IMG/VR virus record: IMGVR_UViG_3300032373_001143
Coordinates: 1-35,928 of that record
DNA: 35,928 nt
Source of the DNA: a virus
Lineage: Duplodnaviria; Caudoviricetes
Strand: one strand, 5' to 3'
The position numbers and the translations under genes are program-made. A model generated the notes under the pieces. It did not search any database. It was not told where the DNA came from and saw only the letters and a program-made list of their open reading frames with translations. Positions 12,171 to 27,779 of this stretch are shown here, piece by piece (position 1 is the stretch's first letter; each line of letters opens with the position of its first letter).

Positions 12171-12455
12171 TCACTTCTGGACGGTGAAGACGTCCGGGAA
12201 GGTGGAGAGGAGGTGGGAGGCGATCTCGTCGGAGACCTCGGTCGGGGTGCCCGACGGGATGACGCCGCCGCCGGCGTGGCGGTACGGGTCGTGGGTCCAG
12301 CCAGGGGCGAGGACGACCACCGTGGGGCCCGTGGTGGGCTCCTCGGCGGCCTTCGCCTCCTCGGCGGCCTTCGCCTCCTCGGCGGCCTTCGCCTCCTCGG
12401 CGGCCTTCGCCTCCTCGGCGGCCTTCGCCTTCTGGGCTGCGGTTAGGCGGCCCAT
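12171..12455 (-). CDS. Small post-capsid protein with (KAAEEA)5 repeat, 94 aa
   Basis: ATG at 12455 overlapping capsid stop; C-terminal PTEVSDEIASHLL motif common in proteins following capsid genes. Confidence 0.7.
   Translation of the reverse strand: MGRLTAAQKAKAAEEAKAAEEAKAAEEAKAAEEAKAAEEPTTGPTVVVLAPGWTHDPYRHAGGGVIPSGTPTEVSDEIASHLLSTFPDVFTVQK
12339..12428. repeat. Five perfect 18-bp tandem repeats CTCCTCGGCGGCCTTCGC
   Basis: Direct reading of sequence; in-frame, encodes AKAAEE units. Confidence 0.95.
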
Positions 12456-14026
12456 CAGGCGAACGTCGAGCTGAGGCCGAACCCAAAGGCGGCGCTCGGC
12501 TTGCTGCTGTTGGACCGGCGAATCTTGGAACGCCGGCGACTCACGAGCGTGACCGTGTTCCGCCGGATGTCCACCTCCGACTCGACGCGCACGCCACCCT
12601 CGGCCCACCGCTGGTAGCGGCCGAGGTCGGCGGCGATCAGGCCGGTCTTGGTCGTGGTGACGCCGTCGTACACGCCCGCGGCGTTCAGGTCCGCAGTCAG
12701 GGCGAAGGCGAGGCACACCGGGAAGCGGCCGAACAGGTACCCGACCTGGTTGGGCAACCCAAGGGCCGGCCCAGGGCCACCGATGGTGCCGGTGAGCAGC
12801 GCGGCGAGAGCCCCAACGTCGTTGTACGACTGGAACTCCGCCCACTTGTACATCTGCGTGAAGAAGAACTCTGGCGAGACGAGGATCACGATGCGGTTCG
12901 CGCCATCGAGGGCCATGAGGGACTCGATGCCGAGGTCGTTGACGACCTCCATCGCGCCGTCGTAGCTCTGCTTCAAGGCGAGGTCGGTGGTCTTGCCGTC
13001 GGCGAAGGCGTGCGCCCGCATGCCCTGCGATGCGTACAGCTGGTTCTCGGCGTCGTCGGCCGTCACGGCCATGCGGCCCCGGACGTCCCAGCCCGCGATG
13101 GTGTCGATGGCTGCCCCGCTGACGTTGCCGTTGACGAAGGCGTTGTCGCTTCCGAAGCCGTTCGCTCGCGCCATCTCGAGGCGGAGCAGCGGAATCATGG
13201 CGACCACGCTCTGCTCGGTTGCCGCGCGGTGGACCTGGGAGGCGCAGGCCATCTCGACGCACTTGATGGTGTCGTCGGACGTCCCGAGGCTGCTGTTGCG
13301 GGCCTGGGCGGGGTCGTCACCGGCCGGGATCTTGTCGATGAAGACCTGAAGGTCGCCCTCAACGAACGGGATGTCGAGAGTGCCGCCGGGGTGGCTCATC
13401 TGCGTGATGACGTTGGACAGCGTGTGCTGTGCCTTCAGGTCACGCTCGTAGTCGGCATCGACCGTATACGGCATCATGTCGGCGCCGAAGCTGGCCAGGT
13501 CCGCGAAGATCTTGCGGATCTGCGCCGGCATCTTCGAGAGAGCCCGCTTCACCCGCTGCTCGGCGACGGGGGTGTGGACGGGGCGTTCGGGGCGGCCCTT
13601 GTGCTTCAGCTGCCGCATCACATCGCGGGTGATCTGCAGGTCGGCCATGGCGCGCTGAAGCTCGGCCTGACCCTCACCACGGGCGTCGACGTCGTCGAGC
13701 AGCCCAGGGACCCAGTACGTCTGGTCGTCGCGGGTGACCTCGTGTCCCCGCAGGCGGATGGTGCCGTTCGAGGACTCGGCGTAGCAGTCCTCGCCCCACA
13801 CTTTCTCGGCGTCGTCGACCTCCATGTAGAAGGCGCACTCGTGAGAGGCGCCCACCTGCGAGTCCATGCCGGCCCGGTTGAGGGCGGTCTGGGCCTGGCC
13901 GATGGTCTTCACCTGCTCCAAGATCTCGGCGATCTGGCCGGCGTTCGCCGTCCCGACTGCCTTCATGGCGTCCAGGTTCTTGACGAGCTTGTCGTGCTCT
14001 ACCTTGAGCTCTGCTTCCGTGGGCAT
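12455..14026 (-). CDS. Major capsid protein, HK97 fold with N-terminal delta domain
   Basis: 523 aa after protease; coiled N-terminus; LRLEMARANGFGSDNAFVNGN and GYLFGRFPV motifs; SD GGAGGG. Confidence 0.9.
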   Translation of the reverse strand: MPTEAELKVEHDKLVKNLDAMKAVGTANAGQIAEILEQVKTIGQAQTALNRAGMDSQVGASHECAFYMEVDDAEKVWGEDCYAESSNGTIRLRGHEVTRDDQTYWVPGLLDDVDARGEGQAELQRAMADLQITRDVMRQLKHKGRPERPVHTPVAEQRVKRALSKMPAQIRKIFADLASFGADMMPYTVDADYERDLKAQHTLSNVITQMSHPGGTLDIPFVEGDLQVFIDKIPAGDDPAQARNSSLGTSDDTIKCVEMACASQVHRAATEQSVVAMIPLLRLEMARANGFGSDNAFVNGNVSGAAIDTIAGWDVRGRMAVTADDAENQLYASQGMRAHAFADGKTTDLALKQSYDGAMEVVNDLGIESLMALDGANRIVILVSPEFFFTQMYKWAEFQSYNDVGALAALLTGTIGGPGPALGLPNQVGYLFGRFPVCLAFALTADLNAAGVYDGVTTTKTGLIAADLGRYQRWAEGGVRVESEVDIRRNTVTLVSRRRSKIRRSNSSKPSAAFGFGLSSTFA

Positions 14027-16634: not shown

Positions 16635-18236
16635 CTACCGACGCAGGCCGTACCACCGAGCGATGCCCATGCAGAGGTACCGGACGGCATCCGCCTCGTG
16701 GTCGTCTTTCTTCAGCGGCGTCGGTGCACGCATCTTCTCGTTCCATCGGTAGTCCTGCAGGCACTTGACGGTCTTCGGGCAGGTGCTCCAGACCTTGAAT
16801 CGGCTGCGCTCATCGGGCTGCACGCGCATGAAGTCCCGCACGCAGTCGATGCCGGGGTCTACGGAGTTGTGAGCCCTACGGACGGGGATGCCAGAGCGGG
16901 ACCACTGCCTGATGCCATCGGGCTCGCCAGGGTCGCCCCACCCAGCCTGGATCACCTCGCCGCACCACTCGGTGCCGTCCTCCTCCTTGCCACGGGTCCG
17001 CCAGACGCCCTTTTCGTCCTTGCGGTGGTCCATGAGCTCGTGGAGCTTGTCCGCATGCTGGGCCCAGGTGAGGCCGCTCTCCACCCACTCCCGGTAGATG
17101 TAGACGGTGCCGTCGTCTCCTACCGCTCCCCACACCACAGCTGTCGGGTTTTTAAGGCCGAAGTCGGCCGCGATGAACCGGGGCCAGTCGGCCGGAATGC
17201 CGTCCTCGAATGGTTCGCACACGTGGTAGCGGCCCCACCGGTCGCGGTCGCCGATGGCGAACTCGGGGTAGATGCCGCCCGCCTTGCTTGTGGCGATGCC
17301 GAAGCGGCGGGTGAGGCGCTCGTGCGGCGTCATCCGCTTCAGGTTCTTCAGCAGCCCGTCGGTGCTCTGCACCAGGTAGTTCAGCAGCGCATCGACGTTC
17401 CCCGAGAAGCATTGGTCTGGGTCTTTGGCCATCTCGACCATCCACGTCTCACCGTCCTGGGCGGTGGCGGCGATGATGACGTGGCCGCCCATCCCGGACA
17501 CCGCACGGCAGCTCTCCGTGAACTTCTTCTTCCCCTCCTCCCCCGTGGGCTCCTCGTCGATGCCGACGCCGCGCCCCTCGATCCCTCGGTACTTGTCCTC
17601 GTCCTGGTCGATGGACATGAACTCCATCCGGCCCGGCTTGTCGTAGCCGGGGCACCCCACCTCCACGAAGGCCTCGGACAGGCTGTTCTTGTGAATCCAC
17701 TTCCGCTCCGGGGGGAGCAAGCTGTCGATGGCGGGTCGGTGGTGCTTGCGGCTCTGGGCGGCAGAGCGAGCGACGAGGAAGACGTGGCCCGGGCCGAGCG
17801 GGACGAGTTCGGGGGGGATGCGGTTCAGCTCGAGGAAGCAGGCCACCATCGGATGGTCGCGGCCGAGCATCAGGCAGATGAGCACCAAGAACATGCAGAA
17901 GGTCTTCCCCCCGCGGTTCCCGCCCCCGGCGATGCTGATCATGTGCGTCAGCATGCCGATGAAGAGGTCCCGCTGACTGGGGGACGGACGGTCGGGGTCA
18001 ACCTCGTCCTGCGCCCACTCGGGAAGGCTGGCGATGTGCTCCGCGCTCCGAATCCAGAGCGGCACCACAGCCATCGGCATCGTCCTGGCCAAGGTGTCGA
18101 GCGTCTCCAGCTCGGCCATTTCGACATCGATGAGCAGCTGTTCCAGCTCGTCGACCGTCAGGCCCTCCAGCTCCTCAGGCGTGAAGGGCAGGTGCTCGAG
18201 GTCGACTCCGTCTAGGAGCTGGGCCACGACGGTCAC
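16635..18236 (-). CDS. terL: Terminase large subunit
   Basis: GTG at 18236; Walker A GGGNRGGKT, Walker B GIDEE, nuclease AADFG and DDHEADA. Confidence 0.95.
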   Translation of the reverse strand: MTVVAQLLDGVDLEHLPFTPEELEGLTVDELEQLLIDVEMAELETLDTLARTMPMAVVPLWIRSAEHIASLPEWAQDEVDPDRPSPSQRDLFIGMLTHMISIAGGGNRGGKTFCMFLVLICLMLGRDHPMVACFLELNRIPPELVPLGPGHVFLVARSAAQSRKHHRPAIDSLLPPERKWIHKNSLSEAFVEVGCPGYDKPGRMEFMSIDQDEDKYRGIEGRGVGIDEEPTGEEGKKKFTESCRAVSGMGGHVIIAATAQDGETWMVEMAKDPDQCFSGNVDALLNYLVQSTDGLLKNLKRMTPHERLTRRFGIATSKAGGIYPEFAIGDRDRWGRYHVCEPFEDGIPADWPRFIAADFGLKNPTAVVWGAVGDDGTVYIYREWVESGLTWAQHADKLHELMDHRKDEKGVWRTRGKEEDGTEWCGEVIQAGWGDPGEPDGIRQWSRSGIPVRRAHNSVDPGIDCVRDFMRVQPDERSRFKVWSTCPKTVKCLQDYRWNEKMRAPTPLKKDDHEADAVRYLCMGIARWYGLRR

Positions 18237-18763
18237 AGCTTCCGCTCCCGCTCTCTCCAGGCCGCCGCGTGCTGCAGCATCTGCTTGCGAGTGGTGCCGA
18301 GCTCGTTGAGGGCCTTCGCCAGCCCCTCCGGTGTGCGGTCCAGGGCCTTCACCTTGCTCTCCCGCTCCCGGGCCTTGTCGAGCTCCTTCCTGGCGTTGAG
18401 CATCACGTTGGCCGCGGCGGCCGCGCTCTTGGCGTCCCCGCGCTTCCTGGAGGCGTCCACGAGTCCCGCCATCTGGGCGACCACCCAGGCCATGCACTCG
18501 GCCGCATCCATGGCGGCCACATCATGGCGGACGGCTGGCTCCTGGTGAGCAACGACGGACGGCGGCGATGAGGATGGTGCCGGCGGCGCGGGCTGATGCC
18601 CTCGGAGCTTGGGGCCGTAGCGCTGAACCCACTTCCTGTACTTGTCCGCGAGCTTCTTCCGCTCGTCGGGGCCGATGCCGGGGAAGAAGTGGAGCGTCGC
18701 TTCGCTTGGGGTGCAGCCCGTGCGGAGCATGTACAGCACCACCTCCTGGGCCTCGGTGGTCAT
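18233..18763 (-). CDS. terS: Terminase small subunit
   Basis: ATG at 18763 with GGAGG; N-terminal HTH-like segment and helical oligomerisation region; coupled to terL by GTGA. Confidence 0.7.
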   Translation of the reverse strand: MTTEAQEVVLYMLRTGCTPSEATLHFFPGIGPDERKKLADKYRKWVQRYGPKLRGHQPAPPAPSSSPPSVVAHQEPAVRHDVAAMDAAECMAWVVAQMAGLVDASRKRGDAKSAAAAANVMLNARKELDKARERESKVKALDRTPEGLAKALNELGTTRKQMLQHAAAWRERERKL

Positions 18764-18788
18764 CGCTCGGCGCCTCCCTGGACACCGG

Positions 18789-18890
18789 TCGGACAGACCT
18801 TGTCCGAGTTGCGGACAGCGAGAAATCTCGACGAAAACCACCTTCGCATAAGGTAGGTGCTAACTGAAATGACATCGAGTCGCGCACTCA
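18789..18890. promoter_or_regulatory. AT-richer segment with clustered short inverted repeats upstream of terS (packaging or regulatory site candidate)
   Basis: TCGGACA-N5-TGTCCGA (18789-18807), CGAGA-AA-TCTCG (18819-18830), ACCTT-N5-AAGGT (18840-18854), GAGT-N5-ACTC (18878-18890). Confidence 0.4.
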
Positions 18891-19863: not shown

Positions 19864-20370
19864 GTACGCCTCGCGGACTTGGGGGTCAGCCATCATCTCG
19901 TCCCACAGGTGAGGCGGTCGCGGGCGAATCTCCCGGCCGTAGCCACAGCGATCGGCGGTGCAGCCGTAGCGCCCGTGCTTGTGCCCACACGGCTCTCGGC
20001 CTGGGACGTGCCCGCACCTGGCGCAGGGGTTCGCGTCATCCCCGCTAGACCATGGCGCATAGCTGTGGCCGTCCCGACACGCCTCCCGCTCTCTCCTCCA
20101 CTCCGGCAGCGTCCAGCCTGCTGGGCAGGACGGACGTGGGCTCCCGGTAGGCGGAGGGAGTGGGGGCGGGGGCGCCTTCGGTCGGGGGCCGGGGGGACGG
20201 CTGGTCGAGGATGCGAAGCCGCCGTCCCGGCGGAGGACAGGTGGCGGAGGCCAAGGCCGGGGCATCGGGATGAGCCTGGCATGCAGGCCGCCGAGCACGA
20301 AGCCGGCCACGAAGCCCGTCACCAGGGCGGCGACCACAGCGACAGACATCAGCGCCAGGTTGGGGTCCAT
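19837..20370 (-). CDS. N-terminal TM, Pro-rich linker, Cys/His-rich (Zn-binding) protein
   Basis: LALMSVAVVAALVTGFVAGFVLGG; C..GH, CARC, CGH..C...C. Confidence 0.6.
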   Translation of the reverse strand: MDPNLALMSVAVVAALVTGFVAGFVLGGLHARLIPMPRPWPPPPVLRRDGGFASSTSRPPGPRPKAPPPPLPPPTGSPRPSCPAGWTLPEWRREREACRDGHSYAPWSSGDDANPCARCGHVPGREPCGHKHGRYGCTADRCGYGREIRPRPPHLWDEMMADPQVREAYDAIVEEEG

Positions 20371-21011
20371 CACGACGCCTCCATGAGCACCACGCGCCCA
20401 TCCTTCGCCGACACGGCGCGTCGCAGCTCGGGCAGGATGTAGGGAGCGGCCGAGCTCTCCACGAGCACCAGGGCGACGTCCAGCCCCCGGAAGCACATGG
20501 CGGGCTGGTTGGCAGCCATGAAGCGAACGGACCCGCGCCGGCCAAACCATGCCGCCCCGCCACGGCCGGTGAGTCCGTGCCAGTTGGCGTTCTCTGGCTC
20601 CGTCAGCAGCTCCGCCACGGCCTTCCGGTGCTCCGCCCTAGACTCGTCATGACTCGCCGCCACGATGAGCACCGGGCCGCCACCACGAGCAACCTCGACG
20701 GCCAGGGCCAGCCCCTCCGCCCTCGTCATCGTCTCCGGAGTCCGCACCGGCGGCGCAGGCGGCTCCAGCACCAGCCGGGCCGTCCAGCCGTGTTGGAGCT
20801 CGACCCTCGCGCTCTTGAGTTTGGTCTTGAGGCGCCGGAGCACATCGACCCCGTAGGAGTGGCGCTCGTCCTCCTTGTGGCGCTCGTCGGCGAGACTCTG
20901 GAGGAACTCCATCACCTTCTCGGCCTGCCCGTCGGCCCCCATCCTCGCGAAGAGGTCGGCCAGCGTCGGGGCCTCATCCGCGGCCTTCTTCATCGCGTCG
21001 TCGCCGCTCAT
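20370..21011 (-). CDS. Degenerate terminase ATPase-domain paralogue (no Walker A, Walker B altered), 213 aa
   Basis: Three ungapped blocks align by eye to this window's TerL (see findings); intact ORF with SD and coupled overlaps. Confidence 0.75.
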   Translation of the reverse strand: MSGDDAMKKAADEAPTLADLFARMGADGQAEKVMEFLQSLADERHKEDERHSYGVDVLRRLKTKLKSARVELQHGWTARLVLEPPAPPVRTPETMTRAEGLALAVEVARGGGPVLIVAASHDESRAEHRKAVAELLTEPENANWHGLTGRGGAAWFGRRGSVRFMAANQPAMCFRGLDVALVLVESSAAPYILPELRRAVSAKDGRVVLMEAS

Positions 21012-21463
21012 GTCTGGACTCCTGCCACCGCGGCCAACGCCTTGATCCGGTCCCCGGATGCATTGGGGTTGTTGATCGCCCTCAGCAGCCCCGCGAGGGC
21101 CTGGTCGCGCGCGTCCGAGACGGTAGGGTCCGAGGCCGTGGGGGCAGCAGAGGGCCGGAGCCCGCCCGCCCTCAGCTTGCCGCCGCTCACCGAGGCCACC
21201 AGGCACTTGACGCAGCCGCGGGCCACCTCCTCGACCTCAATGGTGACACGACCCACAACACCGGTGCGGAAGGCCTGCATCAACGCCATAGCAACGGCTT
21301 CCACGAGTCCGTCTGGCGTGGCCGGAGGCCAGTCCATGAAGATGTGCAGCCCAGTCGACAGGACCACCAGGTCGAGGGCTCGCACCTCATCCCGCAACGC
21401 GAACGCCTTGGCGTCCTCATCGTTCAACAGCATCACGAGTGCCTTCGTCTGTCCCTTCACCAT
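21008..21463 (-). CDS. Hypothetical protein
   Basis: SD GGAGG, coupled overlaps, globular composition. Confidence 0.65.
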   Translation of the reverse strand: MVKGQTKALVMLLNDEDAKAFALRDEVRALDLVVLSTGLHIFMDWPPATPDGLVEAVAMALMQAFRTGVVGRVTIEVEEVARGCVKCLVASVSGGKLRAGGLRPSAAPTASDPTVSDARDQALAGLLRAINNPNASGDRIKALAAVAGVQT

Positions 21464-22687: not shown

Positions 22688-24189
22688 GCTGCCGCCTCGA
22701 CCATGGCGACCACGCCCGCCACAGCCTCACCGAGGGCCCTCTCATCGATCGGCTGGCGGCGCTCGATGGACTTCTTGGCCTGCGCAACGGTCGTCCTGAG
22801 CTTCGTCCACGGAGCCATGAACCGTCGCCGCTCCAGGAGCGCCAGCCCAGGGGGCGCCACTGGTTTCTCCATGCTGAATGCCCGGTCGACGAGGGCCTTC
22901 TGTCGGTCGAGCCGGGCGTCGGCGGCTGCCCGCTCCTCGGCGGCCTCAGCCTTCCGCCGCTCCGCGCGTTCGGCCATCTCGTGCTCCACGTCGTGCTCGA
23001 TGGCACCCAGCGCCTCTCGGTGCTCGTCCGTCCATCCGTCGGTCACGTCGTTGAGCAGGTCGTACACGCGGTTCTGCATGGGCGGAGGCAGGCGGGCGTC
23101 CTGCCGGAGACGGTGCAGCCGCTCGTAGAGGGCCCGCGACTCGTCGTCGTCCTCCTCCTCTTCCGGCTGTGGGGCCTCTGGGGGCGGGGCATCGAGCACC
23201 CGCCTCGATTCCGCCTCGGACCACTCCCGCTCCCCCCTGGCGAACGACAAGTACTCGGGGAACTTCTCGGCGCCGACCACGGTCGACAGCCCGCAGTGCT
23301 TTCGGAGGTGGTCGGCCCGCTTGTGCCTGCCGACCCAGTGCCACCGAATCGTGAGCAGCACGGCGGCGGCTCCATGCTCCCGGATGCGGGCCTTCAGCTT
23401 CTGGCCGATGCCCTTGGATGGCTTGAGGCCGGTGCTGGCGCCCCGCTTGTGCTTCTTCGCCAGGGCGTTCCACAGGTCGACAGCCTCGCGCCAGCTGGCC
23501 AGCAGGGCTGCGTTCTTCGGTTCACGCTCCGGCGCCACCGCAGGTGGTGGCGTGTCGGCGTCTGCCGACGGATCCTCTTCTCTGTCCTCTTCCTTGTCCT
23601 CTTCTTTCCCTCTTTGGGGGTCTGGGAGTCCGGGGTCCTTGGACTCACAGTCCGGGGTGGGTGGACTCACAGTCCGGGGTGCTGGACTCGCAGTCCCCCC
23701 GGACTCGGGGACCCCCTGGACTCCCTGACCGGTGTGGACTCCCTGACCGGGGTGGACTCCCAGTCCCCCCGGACTCTCCGTCCCCCTGGACTCCCTGACC
23801 GGGGTGGACCCTCCGTCCCCCTGGACTCCCTGACCGGGGTGGACTCCCTGACCGGGGTGGACTCCCTGACCGGGGTGGACCCCCAGTCCCCCCGTCTCGG
23901 CCGCGGGAGCGTGTGCCCCATCAGGGACGACGCAGGTGTACCGGGTCGCGAGGCCCGACTTCACATCCGCCAGCAGCCACCCCTCCTCGACCAGCTCTTG
24001 GATGCGCCGGCGGACCGTGCGCTCGTTGAAGCCGGTGCACCTGGCGATGGTGTCCTTCCCTGGCCAGGCCACACGGAGGGAGCCCGTGGCGCGGTCTGCC
24101 GCGCACTCGCCGATGTACTGGAGGATGGCCCGCTGGATGGGGTGCAGGTCGGAGTTGTAGATGGCCTCCCGCCACTCGGCGCGCCTCAA
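22684..24189 (-). CDS. Phage replication initiator (N-terminal wHTH, lambda O-like)
   Basis: AWPGKDTIARCTGFNERTVRRRIQELVEEGWL wHTH; internal iteron array; TTG start. Confidence 0.85.
   Translation of the reverse strand: MRRAEWREAIYNSDLHPIQRAILQYIGECAADRATGSLRVAWPGKDTIARCTGFNERTVRRRIQELVEEGWLLADVKSGLATRYTCVVPDGAHAPAAETGGLGVHPGQGVHPGQGVHPGQGVQGDGGSTPVRESRGTESPGGLGVHPGQGVHTGQGVQGVPESGGTASPAPRTVSPPTPDCESKDPGLPDPQRGKEEDKEEDREEDPSADADTPPPAVAPEREPKNAALLASWREAVDLWNALAKKHKRGASTGLKPSKGIGQKLKARIREHGAAAVLLTIRWHWVGRHKRADHLRKHCGLSTVVGAEKFPEYLSFARGEREWSEAESRRVLDAPPPEAPQPEEEEDDDESRALYERLHRLRQDARLPPPMQNRVYDLLNDVTDGWTDEHREALGAIEHDVEHEMAERAERRKAEAAEERAAADARLDRQKALVDRAFSMEKPVAPPGLALLERRRFMAPWTKLRTTVAQAKKSIERRQPIDERALGEAVAGVVAMVEAAA
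23641..23889. repeat. Iteron array / replication origin, 14 copies of GGAC-N5-G(T/A)CC
   Basis: GGAC at 23641, 23663, 23684, 23701, 23718, 23736, 23754, 23771, 23788, 23806, 23823, 23841, 23859, 23877; core 18-mer GGACTCCCTGACCGGGGT; inside initiator gene as in lambda ori. Confidence 0.85.
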
Positions 24190-26317: not shown

Positions 26318-26433
26318 CGCTGCCCCCGATGGCGTCCCGCAATGCCCCACCCGAACGGAGCGCCGATCAGCCAGCCGATCAGCAGCAATGTCCATGGCTC
26401 GTCACCAGGTGGCCCGTCGGCTACCCTGTCGCC

Positions 26434-26673
26434 ATGCCTGAAGACGCCATCGACACCCTCGTTCGAGCTGGTGAGGAGGTCACTCTGGTCCTCAGCTTGT
26501 CGGCGACCCCATCCGAAATCCGTGGATTCTGGGACAGGGTTGCCCGCTACCAGCGCGACCTGCCAGAAGGGTCGGTCTTCGTCTACACAAACCGGTCCAA
26601 GCCCACCGTCGTCGTCCAACGTGGAGGCGGTGAGCAGTTCCTCATCAAACACATCATCGCCCAAGGCTTCTAG
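26434..26673 (+). CDS. Accessory hypothetical protein, 79 aa, probably leaderless
   Basis: TACCCT -10-like hexamer (26422-26427) 6 nt before ATG; abuts next gene (TAGATG). Confidence 0.65.
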   Translation: MPEDAIDTLVRAGEEVTLVLSLSATPSEIRGFWDRVARYQRDLPEGSVFVYTNRSKPTVVVQRGGGEQFLIKHIIAQGF

Positions 26674-27096
26674 ATGAGCGAAGACAACGAGAGCACCGAG
26701 CTGTCGACCCTTCATGGGGTTTCTGTCGGCATCGGGCCTGAAGGTTTTGCGAAGGCCGACAAGGTCGCCATCACCGAGCTCGTTCAGGCCCAGGCCCAGG
26801 CCGTGCTTGGCAACGTGCGCATCATCGAGCGCCAGCAAGCCATGGAGGAGACGCGGCTCAGCAACGACCACATCCAGGTGATGAGACGGATGGAGATGGC
26901 CGAGAAGGTCGCCAGAGCCAACCAGGGCATGGCGATGCTCTTCCTTGGGGCCCTGCTGTTCATCTTCGTTGGCGTGATGGCCTTTGCCATCATCACGGAG
27001 CGGTACCAGATCGTGGAGAACTCCCTGCTGGTCATCATCAGCTTCATCGGCGGCACAGGCACCGGCTACGGCTGGCGAAAGCGCAAAGAAGGCTAG
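26674..27096 (+). CDS. Accessory membrane protein, coiled coil plus two C-terminal TM helices
   Basis: MAMLFLGALLFIFVGVMAFAII and SLLVIISFIGGTGTGYGW followed by basic tail RKRK. Confidence 0.8.
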   Translation: MSEDNESTELSTLHGVSVGIGPEGFAKADKVAITELVQAQAQAVLGNVRIIERQQAMEETRLSNDHIQVMRRMEMAEKVARANQGMAMLFLGALLFIFVGVMAFAIITERYQIVENSLLVIISFIGGTGTGYGWRKRKEG

Positions 27097-27212
27097 CGGC
27101 CGCATCGGGGCACCTCAGCGGAAGGGGTGCAGTGCGTCCCGTCTTCGGGGACCCCATGCATGATGTAGGGTCCCGTCTGCGTACCGATGCGCAGAGAAGC
27201 CTTGGAGACTCC

Positions 27213-27779
27213 ATGCCTGTTCGCGATTTCATGGTCCGCGCCGTTCTCGGTGTCGCGGTCCCTGCTGCCCTGATGGCCCCGCTCGGCGTGGCGTATGCGA
27301 CCTCTCTCGGAGATCTCCTCGTGACTGTTACGGGTGCCGAAATCGAGCCTGACGTGAGCGGAGGGAACGTGTCTCTCTACGCCTTGAAGGCGAAGACGAT
27401 TGAGGGCGGCGTGCTCACTCGAGAGGTTGTCATCATCGCTAGCGGCGAGGAGTACAACAGGTTCAATCCGACGGACGCCGCGCGCATCAGCGTGAACGAG
27501 GTTGACTCGTTCACGGCCAATCTCGACTCCTGCCTCGCTTACAGCTTCCCGGCAGACTTCGGTAGCTCCACGTGTACCGTCCGGACCACAGACGGGTCCG
27601 TGTCCGTGCGCGTCAGCGTTGCCGATGACGACACCGGGTCGGCCGACGAGCTCCCCCGCCTGGAGGGAGAGCTCACCGTCGTGGACGCCCTCCGTTCCAC
27701 CGACGTCACAGTTGACCGCGATGACCTTGTCAGTGTGCGAGACAGTCTTCGGGCGGCCGCGACGCAGGCACGACTGTAG
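27213..27779 (+). CDS. Accessory secreted beta-rich protein, 188 aa
   Basis: SD GGAG; signal peptide ending VAYA; acidic beta-rich body with one Cys pair. Confidence 0.75.
   Translation: MPVRDFMVRAVLGVAVPAALMAPLGVAYATSLGDLLVTVTGAEIEPDVSGGNVSLYALKAKTIEGGVLTREVVIIASGEEYNRFNPTDAARISVNEVDSFTANLDSCLAYSFPADFGSSTCTVRTTDGSVSVRVSVADDDTGSADELPRLEGELTVVDALRSTDVTVDRDDLVSVRDSLRAAATQARL

Follow-up and report, generated by a model that had tools for sequence, protein, structure and literature searches.

A probable non-catalytic miniature of the large terminase ATPase, encoded ahead of the terminase genes of an uncultured provirus

What use might a tailed phage have for a second, seemingly inactive terminase motor domain encoded ahead of its terminase genes? 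The question is raised by a minus-strand gene for 213 amino acids (the ORF) in a provirus record of 35.9 kb, which CheckV estimates to be about 30% complete. The whole stretch of 35,928 nucleotides is referred to here as the window, and the same provirus lies inside a 280-kb metagenome contig (L083). A sequence-only reading had described the ORF as a catalytically dead copy of the phage's own terminase ATPase domain and as a candidate decoy or inhibitor. Immune sensors of terminase are hard for a phage to escape by mutation, and the available text of PMC13601566 names as an open question what small terminase-like phage proteins do. We find that the ORF is a real, intact, dead mimic of the TerL ATPase, which probably derives from the phage's own lineage. 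A decoy function is possible, and several other roles have to be weighed against it.

The gene and its setting

The features on which this section relies are as follows.

16635..18236, minus strand: TerL of the phage, 533 amino acids, matching phrog_2 (E 6e-20)
18233..18763, minus strand: probable terS, named from position only (coupled to terL)
18764..18887, minus strand: gap before terS, 124 bp, 57% GC against 69%, the only real gap in the run
18838-18856, within the gap: weak terminator-like hairpin (six such sites against 4.0 expected)
20370..21011, minus strand: the ORF, 213 amino acids, an orphan N-terminal domain and a predicted dead mini TerL-ATPase domain in one frame
20373..20735, minus strand: residues 93-213, a TerL ATPase (ASCE) subdomain of minimal size that lacks both lid and nuclease, from alignment, HMM and fold
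20757..21011, minus strand: N-terminal part of about 85 amino acids, homologue not found
21019..21023, minus strand: Shine-Dalgarno AGGAG, ATG 7 nt downstream, duplex -6.9 kcal/mol

The ORF belongs to a coupled minus-strand run made up of a repO-like gene, a ruvC-like gene, an HTH gene, a 151-aa gene, the ORF itself and three small genes. The 124-bp gap follows, and then the probable terS (for which no family match was found), terL, portal and head-tail genes, while the repressor, excisionase and integrase genes are in the opposite orientation. The ORF had been assigned to the early operon. It lies distally in the repO-ruvC run, 2.1 kb ahead of terL and before the terS gap, which agrees with that assignment, but the early timing itself is presumptive. 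We infer that the ORF is expressed ahead of terS and terL, and the gap at 18764-18887 is a candidate boundary to a late unit.

Several other parts of the window deserve mention in their own right. Tandem imperfect repeats in the repO-like gene (23667-23900) are likely to be iterons of a phage origin. The leftward region is broken by three plus-strand genes (26329-27096 and 27132-27779); they are moron-like and had no PHROG match at 1e-4, and the C-terminal half of one of them is hydrophobic. Just before the excisionase gene, a plus-strand gene at 33535-34110 matches phrog_631 (E 2e-37) and phrog_5429, a “DNA repair protein.” At the major-capsid position lies a 523-aa frame (12455-14026, minus strand) that also had no PHROG match at 1e-4.

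As the sequence-only reading had it, the ORF is intact, is preceded by a Shine-Dalgarno sequence and is coupled at both ends, where 4-nt overlaps join it to its neighbors. The frame has no stops, its deletions relative to TerL are all in-frame, and its GC3 (about 0.87-0.89) is like that of adjacent genes, with 0.94 in the N-terminal part. Fragments from a second run were identical wherever they aligned, including 20527-20692, with zero differing letters. Among columns of the TerL alignment, the ORF retains 17 of the 31 that are invariant in eight TerLs of the clade nearest to the phage's own (the near clade), versus 12 of 83 variable ones. In a crude, unbiased neutral simulation, the probability of having no stop was 0.10-0.25 and that of a GC3 of at least 0.87 was 0.005-0.25. 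That the ORF is a remnant of an old terL duplication, decaying neutrally and joined in frame to an upstream gene by chance, is very improbable. Its being a singleton would suit such a relic, but the intact frame, the GC3, the Shine-Dalgarno sequence and the coupling disfavor decay, as do the bias to invariant columns and a confident, compact structural model. The earlier judgment that decay is unlikely is thus supported, and the ORF appears to be translated and under purifying selection.

The unrelated N-terminal domain of about 85 amino acids described in that reading is indeed fused in the same frame, and we found no homologue for it. Residues 55-86 gave a weak amphi-Trp match (TIGR04354, E 0.0019) that covers half of the model at 18.5 bits versus a cut-off of 31. 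The domain had no usable match in the Atlas and none in phages with E < 1, Pfam and PADLOC searches returned no match for the ORF, and a single-sequence model of the full-length protein was unusable (pLDDT 43). An internal ATG (M95, 20727-20729, minus strand), with GGAG 3 nt upstream at short spacing, would give a stand-alone product of 119 aa, which is the size of the small actinophage proteins discussed below. This ATG may mark the fusion point of two formerly coupled genes.

The search for full-length homologues in related phages, which the sequence-only reading had proposed, came back empty. Homologue searches recovered the ORF alone (one of 3331 candidates) and no phage record. A search with profile A4 among proteins of 62-221 aa did the same (one of 2124), and the ORF stands alone among 5.8 billion clustered proteins and among 1.84 billion representatives. 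One candidate homologue (P0022) was rejected as a repeat protein. The metagenome search found the ORF only in L083, that is, in the same provirus, and a scan of genomes with the near-clade TerL alignment gave no match. At 147 other terL loci, many of them short and with TerLs at most 38% identical, there was no second TerL-like copy. Searching 49 of these loci for PHROG 6910 yielded a single match, a 632-aa frame that is a TerL by length.

A terminase fold without an ATP site

The ORF aligns with residues 145-255 of the phage's TerL at 31 of 113 positions (27%; pairwise E 1e-5). The Smith-Waterman score of 76 was reached by none of 5000 shuffles (maximum 68). Three blocks had been noted as gap-free, and each is ungapped (12/25, 7/27 and 7/15 identities), with gaps between them. 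The homology had been placed in the C-terminal half, at 20370-20678; that match is real but begins earlier, at about residue 93. In the phage's TerL the matched stretch is 17472-17804, and Walker A is at 17901-17927. With a TerL-core HMM the ORF scored 29.3 bits; when 19,025 six-frame segments from 148 loci were scored, those that are not TerL reached at most 10.6. At the DNA level, similarity between the ORF and terL is at chance (456 of 1000 codon shuffles do at least equally well), so the split between the two is old and the ORF is an ancient paralogue. A recent terL duplication was rejected on this absence of DNA similarity and on the low protein identity.

The structural comparisons, a check that the earlier reading had proposed, agree with the pairwise ones: the best-matching solved folds are terminases. 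The AlphaFold2 model of residues 88-213 is compact, with a pLDDT of 86, and its strand 1 leads directly into the Walker A helix; the input alignment included TerL rows, which biases the fold, and residues 88-111 had no aligned rows. Matches to solved structures (VIA) were the TerLs of P74-26 (Z 11.0, rmsd 2.9, 120 aligned), D6E (Z 10.0, rmsd 3.6, 125 aligned) and Sf6 (Z 9.9, rmsd 3.2, 121 aligned). Foldseek against solved structures ranked D6E TerL at the top, and D6E TerL is also the closest solved structure to the phage's own TerL (E 9e-19, profile A1). An independent model from the Atlas gave TM scores of 0.72-0.79, and nine of the ten matches listed were named as terminases or were long, terminase-sized proteins. 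PDB sequence searches with the domain and with profiles A4 and A5 produced chance matches only. In the model, nothing is missing from residues 93-213 for a TerL ATPase (ASCE) subdomain of minimal form.

Within this subdomain, four sites are central to the argument.

20721..20726, minus strand: T96-R97, junction of strand 1 and helix A at the expected P-loop site; loop absent (model and alignment)
20487..20489, minus strand: R175 (TerL R217), 10 residues before the Walker B acid, putative P74-26-type trans arginine finger position
20454..20459, minus strand: E185-S186, degenerate Walker B (TerL D227-E228; alignment)
20418..20420, minus strand: R198 (TerL R244, an invariant near-clade residue), one column off the D6E trans finger R158

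In the modeled topology, the strand at residues 93-96 and the helix at residues 97-109 have no P-loop between them. Relative to TerL, D227 is replaced by E, E228 by S and T258 by A, so that the motif III Thr is gone. The ORF has thus lost the P-loop (with the equivalents of TerL R108 and K111), E228, E229, T258, the PGY hairpin, the lid and the nuclease, and its C-terminus falls at about TerL residue 258. The absent Walker A, the change of Walker B from DE to ES and the missing nuclease domain had all been read correctly from the letters, and on this sequence evidence the domain is predicted to be catalytically dead.

What is retained lies elsewhere. In P74-26 TerL the trans finger R139 lies just before the Walker B strand, and in D6E TerL the finger is R158 (PMC5727402); HK97 TerL has no trans finger according to the available text of PMC7617512. 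By alignment, R175 and R198 of the ORF appear to occupy trans arginine finger positions. Among 36 rows, the ORF shares the combination R, R, A at the finger columns with no others than the TerLs P0003, P0006 and P0007. Since the cis elements are lost and the stretches around R175 and R198 are retained, nothing is left of the ATP-holding face, and part of the opposite one survives.

A feature of the TerLs themselves was seen in the same alignment. In one subclade (the phage's own TerL at 16635-18236, minus strand, with P0006-P0011, P0016, L003, L004 and L007), the conserved Arg after Walker B lies one column earlier than in most other TerLs examined and than R158 of D6E. The same subclade has Lys or Arg, not Gln, before Walker B.

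Own terminase lineage or actinophage family

The best predicted-structure neighbors of the ORF are actinophage proteins of 108-155 aa, here called minis, which are annotated as hypothetical, AAA-ATPase or ASCE ATPase (for example, Hedwig gp4, Catdawg gp4, Francois gp4 and Denise gp77). All nine minis examined match PHROGs 6910 and 3167, and five also match TerL PHROGs. A full Walker A is present in two of the nine, and RG is retained in nearly all. At the first finger position they have Arg (8/9) or Lys (1/9), and the second Arg is found in one. The P-loop-less minis of Hedwig (gp4, L153:3569-3937) and Kiko (gp4, L158:3441-3809) lie between portal and capsid protease genes in the head operon, and Francois gp4 overlaps terS (L154). 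This recurrent class of small phage proteins had been missed in the sequence-only reading, and the architecture of the ORF is convergent with it.

The ORF could instead be a divergent member of this family that was acquired and fused, and not a copy of the phage's own terL. There are points in favor of this: the best BFVD fold match is Hedwig gp4 (TM 0.84/0.86), and the ORF matches PHROG 6910 (E 0.0011) and, less well, PHROG 3167 (E 0.024). An HMM of the minis gives the ORF 20.6 bits and six TerLs of its own wider clade at most 2.6, and the near-clade inserts are missing from the ORF as they are from the minis. A careful free tree that includes the minis places the ORF on their side (97/95). 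On the other hand, left-out minis score 42-89 bits on the mini HMM, on which the ORF scores 11-23. When the minis are left out, the ORF falls within the near clade (99/99), with an end branch of 2.76 where most near TerLs have 0.12-0.58, and an AU test did not reject its placement with the near clade (p-AU 0.68). The placements with and without minis thus conflict; these trees were built from 36 or 26 chosen rows and 113 columns, and the Francois TerL was left out because its Walker A pattern is absent.

Several measures other than the trees point to the phage's own TerL lineage. The best three of 142 held-out TerLs for the ORF (some duplicated) are the three nearest to the phage's own TerL (Spearman 0.64). 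An HMM of seven held-out near TerLs gives the ORF 30.9 bits and all nine minis at most 2.4; a far-subclade HMM gives the ORF 17.2. Among nine TerLs, the phage's own ranks first for the ORF (z 10.5, versus at most 3.4 for all eight actinophage TerLs). The gap-free column score is 98.6 for the near clade versus 45.9 for the minis, and 12 diagnostic columns are of near-clade type versus seven of mini type, six of the latter being Ala or Gly. The motif RAVS is shared, among 101 rows, only by the ORF and the TerLs P0003, P0006 and P0007; D6E TerL has Ser at the last of these columns too.

A matrix of 10 minis (the ORF included) by nine TerLs adds to this picture. A mini's own TerL ranked first in four of 10 cases and in the top two in seven, with Hilltopfarm gp130 (last), Denise gp77 (fourth) and PantheRoc gp86 (third) as exceptions; for JangDynasty the TerL of Catdawg was used in place of its own, and three of the pairs are interdependent. 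From this ranking there are hints that minis are repeatedly born from, or track, the resident TerL. Taking the TerL ranking, the near-clade HMM, the column scores and this matrix together, we consider membership of the mini family unlikely. An origin from the own lineage, with convergent trimming, is likely. The derivation from the phage's own terminase that had been claimed therefore fits the data, although the copy is ancient.

Possible roles and relation to known systems

Avs sensors recognize the ATPase domain of TerL, and Avs3 does so through active-site residues and ATP (available text of PMC13601566). The same source describes a bridging ATP for EcAvs2, whose C-terminal sensor contacts R154 and W179 of the PhiV-1 terminase, at -7 and +18 from Walker B D161. 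Recognition appears to be aimed at monomers (PMC13581612, in the text available). In this light, the ORF may be a decoy that occupies terminase-sensing immune receptors ahead of the real TerL, a possibility toward which we lean without holding it to be probable. A non-catalytic TerL-ATPase miniature would have arisen from the lineage's own terL, and its product would be present ahead of the real TerL and would take up the sensors. Binding could use the retained face, which seems to correspond to the region contacted by the C-terminal sensor of EcAvs2. Because the ORF has no ATP site and would supply neither ATP nor active-site residues, Avs3-type sensors would be bound but not fired; sensors of the Avs2 or Upx type, by contrast, might be set off by it.

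A dead, dispensable and fast-evolving mimic that sits ahead of terL suits sensors that need the ATP site, and its long branch and the lack of a second copy at other terL loci are the behavior of an accessory gene. In the available text of PMC13601566, Evans and colleagues suggest that such small TerL-like proteins may be anti-defense factors. However, all three that were tested there, Ksap1, Ksap2 and T4 vs.8, activate Avs2, and Upx activation mostly withstands catalytic mutations (PMC13601566 and PMC11564622, in the text available). Many residues retained in the ORF are plain core (G, V, L, W, F), and at Walker B -7 it has D178 and not the Arg contacted by EcAvs2. As a singleton, the gene offers no dN/dS or synteny support. 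The N-terminal domain is left unexplained, and the free tree with minis speaks against birth from the own terL. Our literature searches, which covered few subscription papers, found no paper on a terminase-derived decoy or on these minis; the anti-Avs factors described in the available text of 10.1101/2025.06.06.658234 are a ligase and a Rossmann-fold protein.

A partner of the packaging motor fits almost as well as the decoy, since the face that the ORF retains doubles as the ring interface, and for the same reason anatomy cannot separate the two. As a pseudo-subunit, the ORF would dock its trans (arginine-finger) face where a TerL monomer holds ATP and, with no such site itself, would cap ring growth; packaging would be timed or damped, TerL monomers shielded from sensors, or a related co-infecting phage hindered. 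The Arg kept at both trans finger positions while all cis elements are lost, the R, R, A state shared with so few TerLs, the Arg or Lys at the first position of the minis, their own-TerL rankings and the location of several minis next to packaging genes all agree with this. Bechon and colleagues raise the possibility of a third partner that hides TerL (available text of PMC11564622). Nevertheless, a lytic-phase blocker that resembles its own TerL most would damage the phage. An essential packaging role is contradicted by the absence from 147 other terL loci and by the viability of ksap1-deleted phages (PMC11564622, in the text available). The finger mapping comes from alignment, the second Arg is rare in minis and HK97 TerL is described without a trans finger, and we regard a motor partner as rather unlikely. 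Still a little less likely is a repurposed fold, a scaffold whose task has nothing to do with terminase or its sensors; it might bind DNA or a host protein, for example, and the fused N-terminal domain may determine which. The very long branch, the loss of 14 of 31 clade-invariant columns, the unexplained N-terminal domain with its high GC3 and weak amphi-Trp match, and the functions of Ksap1, Ksap2 and vs.8, stated to be open in the available text of PMC13601566, would accommodate it. Against it, clade-specific surface stretches beyond the core (SRxxHR, RAVS and both Arg) are retained, and the own TerL type is tracked repeatedly across phages.

A broader pattern can be tentatively proposed, which we consider somewhat doubtful: tailed phages may repeatedly mint miniatures of their own terminase that lack the ATP site, each fitted to the TerL type of its phage, as decoys or shields against terminase-sensing immunity (Avs1-3 and Upx). 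Ksap1, Ksap2 and vs.8 would be members detected by Avs2, and the ORF would be an independent birth in a new TerL clade. With the ORF comes a probable further origin, independent of the others and marked by a clear pattern in which the ATP site is lost and the opposite face kept. Its significance is limited because it is a single gene whose host is uncultured. In culturable actinophages, however, most minis follow the TerL type of their own phage, which makes the choice between decoy and motor partner directly testable in laboratory phages.

The ORF can be compared with three known systems. With the ATPase domain of large terminases (the phage's own TerL, D6E 5oe8, P74-26 4zni and Sf6 4idh) it has the ASCE fold in common, but it lacks the P-loop, the Walker B DE, the motif III Thr, the lid, the nuclease and the clade inserts, and it adds a foreign N-terminal domain. 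With the actinophage minis of PHROGs 6910 and 3167 it shares domain size and topology and the RG before Walker B; Walker A and B are often lost in them as in the ORF, and their genes are often near packaging genes. The minis stand alone, whereas the ORF domain is fused to about 90 aa in one frame, and they resemble actinophage-type TerLs (phrog_9, phrog_7579), while the ORF matches a different TerL clade. T4 vs.8, Ksap1 and Ksap2, as described in the available text of PMC13601566, are, like the ORF, small, lineage-restricted and similar in structure to the TerL ATPase; no sequence link between them and the ORF was seen. Vs.8 keeps Walker A and B, of which the ORF has neither. All three activate Avs2, with which they are toxic (PMC13601566 and PMC11564622, in the text available), and Ksap1 and Ksap2 are described there as not activating Avs3.
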